This document shows, one piece after another, positions 7,281 to 9,852 of a stretch of 9,852 nucleotides of DNA (positions within the stretch are counted from its first letter, which is position 1; each line of letters opens with the position of its first letter). The position numbers and the translations under genes are program-made. Source of the DNA: a virus (Duplodnaviria; Heunggongvirae; Uroviricota; Caudoviricetes); the IMG/VR virus record IMGVR_UViG_2778261346_000016, positions 1-9,852 of that record, one strand, 5' to 3'. Below the pieces are notes generated by a model. That model was not told where the DNA came from, did not search any database, and saw only the letters and a list, made by a program, of their open reading frames with translations.

Positions 7281-7451
7281 TCAGAATGGACACGGCCCAA
7301 GGAAATAACGCTGATTTAATACTTCAGTCTTTGCCGCATTTAAAAATACGCGAACACCTTCACGATCTCCCTTCTGGCGATACATTAACGCCTGCTGCGT
7401 GTACATGCGTCTCTGTAACTTGCTCTCCTTCACTGTGGTTGCAAGTGACAT
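7281..7451 (-). CDS. small ORF, 56 aa (sits where P22 has arf)
   Basis: Hand-translated: MSLATTVKESKLQRRMYTQQALMYRQKGDREGVRVFLNAAKTEVLNQRYFLGPCPF. ATG 7451..7449 with AAGGAG SD 7 nt upstream; stop is 10 nt before the erf start. Overlaps the alternative ORF 7360..7530 in another frame. Confidence 0.35.
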   Translation of the reverse strand: MSLATTVKESKLQRRMYTQQALMYRQKGDREGVRVFLNAAKTEVLNQRYFLGPCPF

Positions 7452-7530
7452 GAATATCTCCTTCGTTACCGATTAAATCTTTCATCTGACGAATGAATTC
7501 TTCGTCTGACCAGTTATCTGTAAAACTCAT
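7360..7530 (-). CDS. alternative small acidic ORF, 56 aa
   Basis: Hand-translated: MSFTDNWSDEEFIRQMKDLIGNEGDIHVTCNHSEGEQVTETHVHAAGVNVSPEGRS. ATG 7530..7528 forms an ATGA overlap with the Kil-like stop, but the SD is weak. Overlaps 7281..7451, so at most one of the two is likely real. Confidence 0.25.
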   Translation of the reverse strand: MSFTDNWSDEEFIRQMKDLIGNEGDIHVTCNHSEGEQVTETHVHAAGVNVSPEGRS

Positions 7531-7679
7531 TTCCTGCGATACAACGGAAGGTTGATAGCTGATTTCATCGCTTTATTTGCTTCAAGCCACATTTTTGAAT
7601 CACCAATAAATCTGGCTATTACTGCTTTGTTCTGTGCAGCACGAAGCATCTGGTGATTGATGGCTATTTCATTGCGCAT
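7527..7679 (-). CDS. kil: Kil-like small protein, 50 aa
   Basis: Hand-translated: MRNEIAINHQMLRAAQNKAVIARFIGDSKMWLEANKAMKSAINLPLYRRK. ATG 7679..7677 with GGAGG SD 4 nt upstream. The core IARFIGDSKMWLEA resembles my recollection of lambda Kil (IATFIGDEKMFREA). Position between cIII-like and the recombination genes matches lambda/P22 synteny. Confidence 0.45.
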   Translation of the reverse strand: MRNEIAINHQMLRAAQNKAVIARFIGDSKMWLEANKAMKSAINLPLYRRK

Positions 7680-7798
7680 AACGCCTCCAGTTGTTTCTTT
7701 GCTGCTCTGATTAATTGTTTAACTCGGCGTGATAATTCAGATTCGTGCGGGTAGAAAGCGGACATGACGCCGCTACCCGCGAGCTGAAAGTGCATCAT
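7664..7798 (-). CDS. cIII: cIII-like protein (FtsH inhibitor family), 44 aa
   Basis: Track ORF 7664..7903 trimmed to ATG-ATG 7798..7793, with AAGGAG SD 7 nt upstream; the longer version would run through a terminator. PHESELSRRVKQLIRAAKKQLEAL resembles the lambda cIII amphipathic core PSESLLERITRKLRDGWKRL (recalled). Confidence 0.5.
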   Translation of the reverse strand: MMHFQLAGSGVMSAFYPHESELSRRVKQLIRAAKKQLEALCAMK

Positions 7799-7861
7799 GG
7801 GTAACTCCTTATATTTGATTGCATAACGAAAACGCCTCGAGTGAAGCGTTATTGGTATGCA

Positions 7862-7888
7862 TATAAAAAAGCCCTCACACTGGAGGGC
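7862..7888 (-). terminator. intrinsic terminator for leftward transcription (tL-like)
   Basis: GCCCTC / GAGGGC 6-bp GC stem (7871..7876 and 7883..7888) with a 6-nt loop, followed on the minus strand by TTTTTTAT (7870..7863). Confidence 0.55.
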
Positions 7889-7950
7889 AAAGAAGATTTC
7901 CAATAATCAGAACAAGTCGGCTCCTGTTTAGTTACGAGCGACATTGCTCC

Positions 7951-7978
7951 GTGTATTCACTCGTTGGAATGAATACAC
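7951..7978. repeat. perfect 9-bp inverted repeat GTGTATTCA / TGAATACAC with 10-bp spacer
   Basis: Read directly at 7951..7959 and 7970..7978. No adjacent U-tract on either strand, so it is not a classical terminator. Confidence 0.5.
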
Positions 7979-8007
7979 AGTGCAGTGTTTATTCTGTTGT
8001 TTATGCC

Positions 8008-8032
8008 AAAAATAAAGGCCGACTATGCGGCC
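8008..8032 (-). terminator. intrinsic terminator immediately after the 60-aa moron gene
   Basis: GGCCG / CGGCC 5-bp stem (8017..8021 and 8028..8032) with a 6-nt loop, followed on the minus strand by TTTATTTTT (8016..8008). The stop codon of the 8033..8215 gene abuts the stem. Confidence 0.45.
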
Positions 8033-8215
8033 TCAGAATGGTTTATATCCATTTTTAAAGGCGAAATCGTATGCCTCATCCTTAGTGCTGAAGTATTCAT
8101 AATCAGCAAATCCATCACGATAAAACTTGCAGCACCAATGATGCGGAATGCCATCCTCAGGACCATAGTCTTGATGGAACACATCCTCGACGATGATATT
8201 TTCATCTTTTCCCAT
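8033..8215 (-). CDS. small acidic aromatic-rich protein, 60 aa (moron; function unknown)
   Basis: ATG 8215..8213 with AGGTGA SD about 5 nt upstream; TGA 8035..8033 followed directly by a terminator. The locally AT-rich segment (about 7985..8280) contrasts with its flanks. About 13 D/E against 6 K/R. Confidence 0.5.
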   Translation of the reverse strand: MGKDENIIVEDVFHQDYGPEDGIPHHWCCKFYRDGFADYEYFSTKDEAYDFAFKNGYKPF

Positions 8216-8277
8216 ATATCACCTAAAATAAGTGGTTTGCTGCCAAAACAATGAACCATCCGGAAATTCCAGATAGT

Positions 8278-8505
8278 TCATAATTCACTCTTCAATACTT
8301 CCAACTTACTAATCGCCGATAGATATCCGCGCTGATAGGGAATCATCATTCCTTCGAGCTTGCCACTTCTTAACTCCTCCCTGAGCAATTGTATTGCTTG
8401 ATCAATAACCTCTGACTTAGCGTCCTTTATGGCTTGCTTGCGGGGCTTTGCTTTCTGCTTTGGCAGATTTCTCAAGCATGATGGAATGTATGTCTGATTC
8501 ACCAC
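8278..8505 (-). CDS. possible small protein, 75 aa, GTG-initiated (low confidence)
   Basis: ORF beginning at GTG 8505..8503 immediately after the N-like TAA. No ATG start or clear SD; it may be real (coupled to N) or spurious. Confidence 0.25.
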   Translation of the reverse strand: MVNQTYIPSCLRNLPKQKAKPRKQAIKDAKSEVIDQAIQLLREELRSGKLEGMMIPYQRGYLSAISKLEVLKSEL

Positions 8506-8778
8506 TTACCTCGCCGTCAGTTGTTTTGATTTCCGGTATCCTGCCGCGTAAATAGCTACGTTTGGCAGGCAAACACTTCCACTGCATTCATCTGCCTTCT
8601 TGCAGCGAAGGCTTCCGAGTGATGCTGCTTTGTCTGCTCTGACGCAACCAGAGAGCTTTCGCGCAATTTTTCGCGCCAGTCGCTGCTCTTGCATTGCCTG
8701 TTCACGTTGAGCCTGTCTGCGTGCTCTGCGGCGATTTCTGGCGTTATCGTCAGCCAGATATGTAATGACTACTGTCAT
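8506..8778 (-). CDS. N: N-like transcription antiterminator with N-terminal arginine-rich motif, 90 aa
   Basis: ATG 8778..8776 with GGAGGT SD 6 nt upstream. N-terminal NARNRRRARRQAQREQ resembles the lambda N arginine-rich motif (TRRRERRAEKQAQW, recalled). First gene downstream of the nutL-like site and operator/promoter region on the same strand. Confidence 0.55.
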   Translation of the reverse strand: MTVVITYLADDNARNRRRARRQAQREQAMQEQRLARKIARKLSGCVRADKAASLGSLRCKKADECSGSVCLPNVAIYAAGYRKSKQLTAR

Positions 8779-9223
8779 GTTGACCTCCGATGATTGACTT
8801 TGGTGATTGGATGGCCGGTGCTGAATTCCGGCTTACTGGTTAGAGCGCCCGCACTACCAGTGACGCTGTCTTGAGGCGCAGATTGGTTACTGCTTGCCAT
8901 GAGCGCTGTTTATACATTGGTCGAGCATCAGCCTGCTCATTCATCCAATCCCAAAGCCAACTACTCTTTGACTCACACTCTCGCAGTGAGCGCGCTCATG
9001 CCCTTGAGTCTCTGCCGCTTCATCGCCGCTGATAACCGGTGCGCGTCTGGCATTCGCGCTGCTTTACCGGAGCTACTTTTAATATATTGACCCTAACCCG
9101 ATGCTAAGCAGGCTCGCTCAATGGCGACTCAGGGCAGCATCATTACTGCTGCATTTCCTTTCGGCTGCGGTCTAACCGCGTTAGTGCACCATTACGGCAC
9201 CTCCTGTTTGGTTAAACTCAGTT

Positions 9224-9263
9224 CCCGCATTTCGGCGGGACAATCCCATCAATGTTAAAGAGC
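9224..9263 (-). promoter_or_regulatory. nutL-like site: boxA plus boxB hairpin
   Basis: Minus strand reads GCTCTTTAACA (reverse complement of 9253..9263), close to the recalled boxA consensus (rrn boxA TGCTCTTTAACAA; lambda CGCTCTTA). A 13-nt spacer is followed by hairpin CCCGC-CGAAAT-GCGGG (9239..9224). Confidence 0.45.
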
Positions 9264-9304
9264 CTGCCAATCTGTTCCGTTTGGCTTCCAGCGTCCTGCT
9301 GATG

Positions 9305-9400
9305 GCTAAAGAATACTGTAGGTATTTTATTGTGTAAATACCCAAGGTATTTATTTTTGATGAAATAATGATAAACAAATGAATACAAAGGATATTTATT
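9305..9400 (-). promoter_or_regulatory. oL/pL-like region: three 17-bp operator palindromes overlapping a leftward promoter
   Basis: Perfect 7-3-7 palindrome AAATACC-CAA-GGTATTT at 9336..9352; imperfect copies GAATACT-GTA-GGTATTT at 9311..9327 and GAATACA-AAG-GATATTT at 9381..9397. Minus-strand candidate -35 TTTACA (9338..9333), 17-nt spacer, -10 TATTCT (9315..9310), about 40 nt upstream of boxA. Confidence 0.45.
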
Positions 9401-9483
9401 TGTTTCGGTGTCTGCTTGTTCAGTGCTTTTTATGCGGGATATGTGAAGTGGATCCCGATAGCTATTGCTGCCGGGATTATGGG

Positions 9484-9852
9484 TTAGTCAGCGAAGGTTA
9501 AGACGAGAATTACCTTAATGATGTCTGCTACAACAGACACGGCCATAGATAAACCAAAGACGATCCAAGCCATAGAGATGTCTTCACTACCATCGTATAG
9601 GGTTCCGTAATCACTGGTGTAAGGCGTAAATGTCGCGCCTTGATACAATAGGTATAAGCTTGATCCATAGAGGATAAATGCAGATATCCCTTGTATTGCT
9701 ATGATCACTAGAATCATGAAACGAGCTGATCTATGCGCCCAAGCCTGGCTTATTTTTTCTGATAGAGATTTCGCAATAAAAGCATGCGCTAAGCCGTAAA
9801 TTGTTGAGATTGCCAACATCCCCAAAAAGCTTGCTATAGCGGTTCCAACCAT
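9484..9852 (-). CDS. hydrophobic membrane protein, possibly 5'-truncated by the window edge (occupies the lambda rexB-like position)
   Basis: ORF runs to the window end with no upstream stop visible, so the ATG at 9852 may be internal. Multiple long hydrophobic stretches. Sits on the far side of the operator region from the N-like gene. Confidence 0.45.
   Translation of the reverse strand: MVGTAIASFLGMLAISTIYGLAHAFIAKSLSEKISQAWAHRSARFMILVIIAIQGISAFILYGSSLYLLYQGATFTPYTSDYGTLYDGSEDISMAWIVFGLSMAVSVVADIIKVILVLTFAD

Follow-up and report, generated by a model that had tools for sequence, protein, structure and literature searches.

Four small overlapping genes, probably a cIII–kil–gp42.1–gp42 block, in the leftward early region of a lambdoid prophage

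The window analysed here, a 9,852-nt stretch of a Caudoviricetes sequence (IMG/VR record IMGVR_UViG_2778261346_000016, positions 1 to 9,852), carries four small open reading frames (ORFs) on its minus strand between positions 7281 and 7798. These very probably constitute the cIII–kil–gp42.1–gp42 block, which in lambdoid (Shiga-toxin) prophages of the HK022/HK97 type belongs to the leftward early (PL) operon; here the block is placed between the N-dependent terminator region and an Erf–SSB–Abc2 recombination module. The last two ORFs, gp42.1 and gp42, overlap out of frame and are called ORF B and ORF A hereafter. It is likely, in our view with good confidence, that all four encode proteins and that a single transcript carries them as successive cistrons, which overlap or lie close together. 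Pfam and PHROG E-values, together with frame-specific substitution patterns, place the four ORFs beyond chance. The genes are already known at annotation level, all four being annotated in HK022, HK106 and Sf6, where ORF A is HK022 gp42 (gene 42) and Sf6 gene 29, and ORF B is HK022 gp42.1 and Sf6 gene 30. As the result of a scan, the block is therefore ordinary, since its genes are annotated in these phages and, ORF B excepted, in RefSeq.

Identity and layout of the four genes

A first-pass annotation made from the sequence alone had described a 44-aa cIII-like ORF and a 50-aa Kil-like ORF with strong Shine–Dalgarno (SD) sequences, followed by two mutually overlapping 56-aa ORFs, one preceded by an AAGGAG SD and the other coupled to kil by ATGA. 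All of these coordinates, starts, SDs and overlaps were confirmed from the sequence (Table 1). It had also remarked that the genes were absent from the ORF list supplied with the window, and the cause was only the cut-off of that list, which was set at 60 aa. Within the interval, the list contained a 79-aa TTG ORF (7664–7903), a plus-strand 82-aa ORF (7205–7453) and a TTG-extended erf ORF (6665–7300) whose tip covered 20 nt of the interval. Two terminator-like hairpins, one at 7888–7871 with a T-run and one at 7850–7831, lie in the N-terminal extension of the 79-aa ORF, and the former is the equivalent of the terminator annotated in HK97 and HK106. Because the extension crosses this terminator hairpin, the 79-aa ORF is over-extended, as had been proposed, and the short form of cIII is taken as the real one; the plus-strand ORF was likewise present as the shadow frame that had been described. 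The RefSeq pipeline PGAP calls cIII, kil, ORF A and erf and leaves out ORF B.

Over 1 kb (7100–8100), the window was 100% identical to the Stx2c-converting phage Stx2_5044 and showed 95–98% DNA identity over 87–92% of the length to HK022, HK97, HK106 and H-19B. Compared with the corresponding block in HK022, HK97, HK106, H-19B and Sf6 (genes 32–29), the order and overlaps were unchanged and essentially nothing differed. ORF A was identical to HK022 gp42, and ORF B was one residue away from HK022 gp42.1, the cIII and kil genes of that phage being genes 44 and 43, respectively. In Sf6-type alleles, the central part of ORF A differs and ORF B ends four codons earlier. The block was matched at least in part in 1114 of 5426 complete Escherichia coli genomes, 243 of which contained ≥ 80% of it. 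Public contigs with the exact ORF A protein (RefSeq WP_000050554.1) numbered at least 1000, and those with the exact ORF B protein 103. In the PHROG database, ORF B matched phrog_2123 (6.3e-40, over profile positions 1–52) and ORF A matched phrog_1723 (4.5e-34). None of the four genes had a family in NCBIfam, Rfam gave no matches for the interval, and a pattern search for a boxA-like nutL element returned nothing relevant.

The product of cIII matched Pfam PF08134 along the full profile (positions 1–37; E = 2e-30; 104.7 bits against a cut-off of 25). HK97 CIII has the same sequence, and the RefSeq entry (WP_000972063.1) bears the name ‘protease FtsH-inhibitory lysogeny factor CIII’. Within the PL operon, the gene is where cIII would be expected, after N and the terminator and before kil. 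Two classes of CIII, the lambda type and the HK022 type, have been distinguished, and the CIII proteins of HK022, HK97 and H-19B are identical (Kobiler et al., PMC1838920); by its sequence, the window CIII belongs to the HK022 class. It shares with lambda CIII and P22 C3 (both PF02061) the operon position, the small size, an N-terminal AG-G motif and a central helical region, but differs in its separate class (PF08134) and in its length (44 aa vs. 52–54 aa). Pairwise similarity was detected to P22 C3 (42% over 36 aa, BLASTP E = 7e-5), whereas that to lambda CIII was not significant (E = 0.68). By homology, CIII would inhibit FtsH and thereby stabilise CII.

Kil was recognised by Pfam PF06301 (E = 1.7e-20; 72.6 bits against 27.6; profile positions 1–31) and by phrog_2055 (2e-34), and it differs from HK97 Kil at one residue. 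The cIII-like and Kil-like identities initially assigned from the sequence alone were thus upheld by Pfam scores above the family thresholds. Compared with lambda Kil, the window protein showed 54.5% identity over 33 aa (E = 8e-9) in the helix-turn-helix core (lambda Kil residues ~4–38; IATFIGDEKMF in lambda, IARFIGDSKMW in the window), and both genes are placed after cIII. An RSK/RSSK motif has been reported for nearly all lambda Kil homologs (PMC11762379), whereas the window Kil lacks it and has the basic end ...LPLYRRK. Window Kil had no detectable sequence similarity to P22 Kil. Alignment to the lambda and P22 proteins, which had been suggested as a check, was successful for lambda Kil, P22 C3 and, as described below, the N-terminus of P22 Arf with ORF B, but not for P22 Kil or, pairwise, for lambda CIII. 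Kil would be expected, by homology, to block FtsZ-ring assembly in a ZipA-dependent manner, a mechanism described previously (PMC3961180; PMC11762379).

In the proposed expression scheme, cIII and kil would each be translated from a separate SD, a strong one for cIII and, for kil, one located within the end of cIII. ORF B would rely on ATGA stop–start coupling to kil, ORF A would initiate from the strong SD inside ORF B in the +1 frame, and erf would start shortly after the ORF A stop.

Table 1. Features of the four-gene block and its surroundings in the window (aa, amino acids; nt, nucleotides)
Feature	Position	Strand	Remarks
cIII, 44 aa	7664–7798	−	ATG 7798; AAGGAG 7805–7810, 6-nt spacer
kil, 50 aa	7527–7679	−	ATG 7679; GGAGG 7684–7688, 4-nt spacer; 16-nt overlap with cIII end
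ORF B, 56 aa, acidic	7360–7530	−	ATG 7530 overlaps kil stop (ATGA); weak AGGA 1 nt upstream
Constrained N-terminal part of ORF B, codons 1–24, MSFTDNWSDEEFIRQMKDLIGNEG	7459–7530	−	pN/pS, Arf-like
ORF A, 56 aa, basic	7281–7451	−	ATG 7451; AAGGAG 7458–7463, 6-nt spacer; SD within ORF B codons 23–25
ORF B/ORF A overlap, 92 nt	7360–7451	−	B codons 27–56 and stop vs. A codons 1–30; A in the +1 frame of B
erf start	ATG 7270	−	Weak GAGAA signal; 10 nt past ORF A stop
erf, ERF-family single-strand annealing protein	6665–7270	−	Pfam PF04404, 2e-44
Short SSB-like gene, 127 aa, recombination module	6282–6665	−	phrog_44, 1.3e-27; no Pfam match
abc2, anti-RecBCD, recombination module	5965–6258	−	Pfam PF11043, 6e-64
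N-like antiterminator	8506–8778	−	PF25694
Two small ORFs between N-like gene and cIII leader	8278–8505, 8033–8215	−	
Terminator-like hairpins before cIII	8034–8015, 7888–7871, 7850–7831	−	7888–7871 matches HK97/HK106 terminator; 7850–7831 from consensus scan only

Coding evidence for the overlapping pair

To judge by its substitution pattern, ORF A is better conserved than ORF B. Among diverged loci (Nei–Gojobori method), the ratio of the proportions of nonsynonymous (pN) and synonymous (pS) differences within the overlap was 0.22–0.75 in the A frame, against 1.1–6.9 in the B frame and 0.7–6.9 in the other frames. In the A-only part, it was about 0.24–0.47 in the A frame and 0.6–1.7 in the others, and the A frame had the lowest ratio in every comparison. 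Furthermore, in loci sampled on ORF B, which are unbiased for the A-only region, nine of the 12 variants in that region were synonymous and 10 were at codon position 3. Scans for close relatives in IMG/VR yielded near-identical loci only and were biased by the query, and they were used only for the region outside it; the scan of genome contigs yielded eight loci only. These patterns strongly suggest that ORF A is under purifying selection along its full length, the overlap included, and is coding throughout.

The same observations bear on the idea that conservation reflects RNA or DNA elements, such as translational-coupling structures or the erf ribosome-binding site, and not proteins. Elements of this kind are conceivable here, as the ORF A stop is embedded in the ribosome-binding site of the following gene in relatives, a weak hairpin occurs at 7364–7349, and phage HK620 has terminators annotated inside kil and inside hkaM (tL2D), the latter being its ORF A homolog discussed below. 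However, variation is concentrated at codon position 3 of the proposed frames, the proteins stay similar while synonymous sites are near saturation (pS 0.8–1.0), synonymous variation occurs in the terminal codons for Pro (CCA/CCG/CCC) and Phe (TTC/TTT), and the search of Rfam found no matches. Additionally, the hairpin, which with its T-run (CGTGAAGGTGTTCGCG TATTTTTAAA) lies on the minus strand exactly at the ORF B stop and inside ORF A, is absent from the Sf6-type allele and is therefore probably fortuitous. We regard an explanation without proteins as extremely improbable.

ORF B is predicted from the same type of comparison to be coding, and functional in roughly its first 24 residues only. 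Over the first 20 codons, pN/pS was 0.21–0.47 in the B frame and 0.7–3.0 in the other two frames, which also contained stops, although these values come from 20 codons and three non-independent pairs. An Enterobacter phage with 39% ORF B identity has retained the arrangement kil–ATGA–ORF B–ORF A with an unchanged offset of 79 nt. Past residue ~25, ORF B was unrelated among the window, the Enterobacter phage and Pseudocitrobacter, whereas ORF A stayed similar over the same nucleotides. Selection for a long ORF B tail was considered and rejected: the B frame is open for 25–29 codons past the ORF A start in loci with ORF B, which is within the range of 2–44 codons in loci without it, and no signal of selection was found. 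Since the tail is unconstrained, unrelated among relatives and unexceptional in length, the 30-codon end of ORF B is best understood as an out-of-frame read of ORF A, that is, a by-product of the overlap. The first-pass annotation had left open which of the two overlapping frames is translated and had allowed for both; the substitution patterns and the arrangement in relatives support the latter option.

The constrained part of ORF B resembles P22 Arf. Its N-terminus, MSFTDNWSDEEFIRQMKDLIG (WSDEEFIRQMKDLIG), aligned with the Arf N-terminus, FSDEEFIALISPEIE, with the motif (W/F)xD(D/E)EFI present, and the comparison of ORF B with the Arf family gave an hhalign probability of 91.9% (E = 7e-7). 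A Klebsiella Arf homolog (RCIP0034 gp41, MSAAEKWNDDEFIQLMSDAIG...) served as a bridge (BLASTP 52% over 21 aa, E = 7e-7), as it matches the Arf PHROG (phrog_2445) and, weakly, the PHROG of ORF B. One cluster of ORF B proteins is named ‘accessory recombination function protein’ in one public source. P22 Arf (47 aa, phrog_2445) is also like ORF B in its position between kil and erf, its ATGA-type coupling and its acidic character. In contrast, the C-terminal half of P22 Arf (NLxAERQNPxIxWDEFAG) is absent from both ORF B and ORF A, and ORF B matches phrog_2123, not phrog_2445. ORF B therefore appears to be Arf-like in one domain only and not a full member of the family. Both overlapping frames had initially been described as arf-position ORFs. 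Both do lie between kil and erf, and the N-terminal ~24 residues of ORF B are Arf-like; ORF A, however, showed no similarity in the comparison with Arf and was dropped as a candidate relative.

The ORF B N-terminus is also found in a 35-aa protein, in which it is followed by a short acidic tail (MSFTDNWSDEEFIRQMNKMLNQHKEQEKDDDSDSE). This protein was present in at least 1000 contigs, where it is mostly unannotated or labelled ‘hypothetical’; prophages of E. coli and Salmonella that have other recombination modules carry it very often. In Salmonella phage SEN22 (L172 1501–1608; P0095), for example, the gene to which the 35-aa ORF is coupled by ATGA is a different type of cIII, and an exonuclease VIII-type module comes after the ORF. 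Erwinia phage 59 and locus L186 encode 49-aa proteins (...DFDFIRALYEM...) before ORF A, and these were tried as further relatives of ORF B and rejected (hhalign 0.7%).

These data can be set against the view that only ORF A is functional and that ORF B is a relic, namely an Arf-like N-terminal stump that was cut when the module of ORF A and its single-strand annealing protein (SSAP) gene joined and that is perhaps still translated via kil coupling. The unconstrained and wholly different tails, a length within the range of that frame in B-less loci, the many phages that have ORF A without ORF B, the omission by PGAP and the mosaic or deletion junctions inside ORF B (P0031, P0034, P0059 and P0064) would all fit a relic. 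However, purifying selection on the first 20 codons is seen in the B frame only, and the ATG and the ATGA coupling have been kept behind differing genes, which are kil in the window but of the cIII type in Klebsiella phiKp_30 and SEN22. Moreover, stand-alone ORFs with this N-terminus and a short acidic tail are very common, and in-frame 21-nt duplications keep the reading frame (P0029 and P0036). A relic is thus unlikely, and a functional N-terminal part of ORF B is preferred.

The alleles P0029 and P0036, from E. coli and Salmonella, carry two or three tandem 21-nt units (EFIRQMK) at the equivalent of window positions 7480–7500, and both downstream frames are preserved. The deletion or mosaic junctions, observed at the equivalent of window ~7500 in P0059, P0064, P0031, P0034 and P0051, fall within ORF B at ...NWSDEEFIRQ.... 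In one junction protein, a PF11438-matching N-terminal segment like the arginine-rich motif of lambda N (MDAQTRRRERRAEKQAQW...) is fused to ORF B.

Natural fusions of the two proteins also occur. HK97 gp42.1 (83 aa) consists of ORF B residues 1–43 and ORF A residues ~17–56, joined by two 1-nt insertions, and the allele P0056 (82 aa), found in at least 36 NCBI E. coli assemblies, is a fusion caused by a 1-nt deletion. HK97 (+2 nt) and P0056 (−1 nt) shift the frame at one spot, window 7409–7416 on the minus strand (CATGT/ACACGC/AG). Window-type and Sf6-type ORF A begin to diverge at this spot, which is therefore a mosaic boundary.

Such fusions raise the question of whether the real product is a B–A fusion made by programmed +1 (or −2) frameshifting in the overlap, with HK97 gp42.1 as a hard-wired version. 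The location of ORF A in the +1 frame of ORF B, the occurrence of natural 82–83-aa fusions with coinciding HK97 and P0056 junctions, and the complementary charges of acidic B and basic A, as read from the sequences, would be in line with this. Nevertheless, no slippery run, in-frame stop or rare-codon pause was recognised in the overlap, which was checked by inspection only and without a formal scan. In relatives that contain ORF B, ORF A has retained a separate ATG, which follows an AAGGAG in the window, Sf6, Klebsiella and Enterobacter types (GTGAAGGAGG in the Enterobacter phage; not evident in Pseudocitrobacter), and ORF A stands alone in many phages. Furthermore, the junctions of the other fusions vary from B residue 26 to 51, as random 1-nt indels in a 92-nt overlap would give. 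Since any net −1 indel in the overlap makes a fusion, the fusions indicate tolerance and do not demonstrate programmed frameshifting, which we consider highly improbable. With ORF B and ORF A regarded as separately initiated genes, the fusions may perhaps still mean that the acidic B part and the basic A part are functionally linked.

ORF A and its association with annealing-protein genes

The ORF A family is small, with about 21 representatives in an exhaustive HMMER search. The 12 full-length sequences all terminate in ...PF, nearly always as FLGxxPF (YFLGPCPF in the window). An AlphaFold2 (AF2) model of ORF A predicted a helical hairpin (helices 7–27 and 30–51; mean per-residue confidence, pLDDT, 86.8) with a free C-terminal tail. 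A Foldseek search of the Protein Data Bank (PDB) with this model returned generic two-helix matches only, all with E > 2, and a profile search against PDB sequences gave a best E of 0.27.

The family is closely tied to SSAP genes of the ERF, Rad52_Rad22 or AAA_24/Sak4 type, which follow ORF A. The gap between the two genes was 7–10 nt in nearly all other loci checked, as compared with 10 nt to erf in the window; the exceptions were one 49-nt gap and one HNH insertion, and two metagenomic contigs ended before the downstream gene. Adjacency to an SSAP gene and the FLGxxPF C-terminus are family criteria that were derived in this analysis. In relatives, the ORF A stop lies inside the SSAP ribosome-binding site (junction TTCTGAGGTGAnnnATG). 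As this site has decayed to GAGAA in the window, translation of erf may lean on termination–reinitiation after ORF A.

Two further features were seen around these units. HNH endonuclease genes have been inserted at the borders of the ORF A–SSAP unit, between ORF A and erf in one phage (ABTNLsp11242, L171 1679–2149) and after erf in others (L186 and L187), and no other gene was seen to break up the unit. In addition, SSAPs of the ERF, Rad52_Rad22 and AAA_24/Sak4-like folds have similar C-terminal tails, ...EL(K/R)xAFxxAWxxLxGxxEQxxKAxxVYxIRxxEL...AA, which were seen at window 6665–6800 (the Erf C-terminus), L168 ~2400–2543, L170 ~2250–2387 and the 3′ ends of the SSAP genes in L186, L188 and L190, while HK620 Sak4 and the Enterobacter homolog are without them. 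The occurrence of similar tails on three folds suggests a swappable partner-binding module.

A relative of ORF A is HkaM of phage HK620, which falls into the same PHROG (phrog_1723; HkaM 3.6e-33, and Erwinia gp43 4e-16). It shows 36% identity to ORF A (hhalign 90.5% for the ORF A family vs. HkaM), lies directly upstream of an annealing-protein gene and has the C-terminus ...FL..PF. Unlike ORF A, HkaM has 62 aa, is followed by Sak4 instead of Erf and has no overlapping ORF B. It was first labelled ‘arf’ by position and is an orphan according to Hutinet et al. (PMC5928155), beyond which our literature search found nothing on gp42.1 or HkaM.

P22 Arf stimulates Erf-mediated recombination (Poteete et al. 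1991, as cited in PMC12315714). Given their position and the link to Arf, ORF A and ORF B may by analogy be accessory factors of the Erf–SSB–Abc2 module, as Arf is for P22 Erf, and might act together. ORF A is not discussed in a recent survey of lambdoid recombination modules (PMC12315714).

Several points weigh against a chain of four translated genes whose last two products cooperate in recombination. Apart from the narrow base of the ORF B substitution ratios, this ORF has a poor SD, is short and is omitted by PGAP, and the literature search found no ribosome-profiling or proteomic report on ORF A, ORF B or these phages. ORF A occurs without ORF B in several relatives, including Erwinia phage vB_EhrS_59, Salmonella phage ABTNLsp11242, a Kluyvera prophage and several metagenomic or genomic contigs, and therefore the two are not obligate partners. 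In HK620, sak4 and ssb alone gave the same oligo-recombineering as all three surrounding genes (PMC5928155), which implies, although it was not reported as such, that HkaM made no contribution in that assay. Finally, the AF2 model of a natural fusion (P0010) had a pLDDT of 58 and a predicted template-modelling score (pTM) of 0.39, and it did not place the B helix against the A hairpin with confidence.

A more specific function is conceivable for ORF A, although we regard it as rather doubtful: it may be a general SSAP partner that works as a mimic of the SSB C-terminal tip. A free, flexible C-terminus is the feature most conserved in the family, and its xPF-COOH end was compared with the tips of E. 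coli SSB (DDDIPF), HK620 SSB (NDYPPF) and the window SSB-like protein (DDSIPF). P and F are the most important residues of the C-terminal tips of bacterial and phage SSBs. If the proposal were true, ORF A could fill the SSB-tip pockets on ExoI, RecQ, RecJ, PriA and others, or on the annealase, so that recombination intermediates would be protected or channelled. With the Arf-like ORF B peptide as the acidic partner of ORF A, the recurrent B–A fusions would be explained. In HK620, the SSB tip NDYPPF is essential for the stimulation of Sak4 (PMC5928155).

Implications and neighbouring genes

The block illustrates how automated annotation systematically loses one member of a genuinely overlapping gene pair. 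It also draws attention to ORF A as a small protein tied to an annealing-protein gene across three unrelated annealase families. P22 Arf gains distant relatives that define a minimal N-terminal motif. Stx-converting phages belong to this prophage type, and accessory recombination functions could have a part in the mosaic evolution of such phages.

The genes of the window lie on the minus strand in the order N-like gene, small ORFs, hairpins, cIII, kil, ORF B, ORF A, erf, SSB-like gene and abc2 (Table 1). The protein encoded at 6282–6665 ends in ...YDDSIPF, resembling the SSB C-terminal tip, and its homolog is annotated in HK022 as a ‘likely analog of P22 Abc1’. Further along, two adjacent Ead/Ea22-like paralogs (PF13935) are encoded at 2991–3743 and 3740–4402 on the minus strand, with overlapping stop and start codons, and the ORFs at 4390–5127, 5027–5335, 5332–5811 and 1940–2527 are without a Pfam family. 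At the window edge, upstream of the N region, a hydrophobic 122-aa ORF (9484–9852, minus strand) probably encodes a membrane protein.

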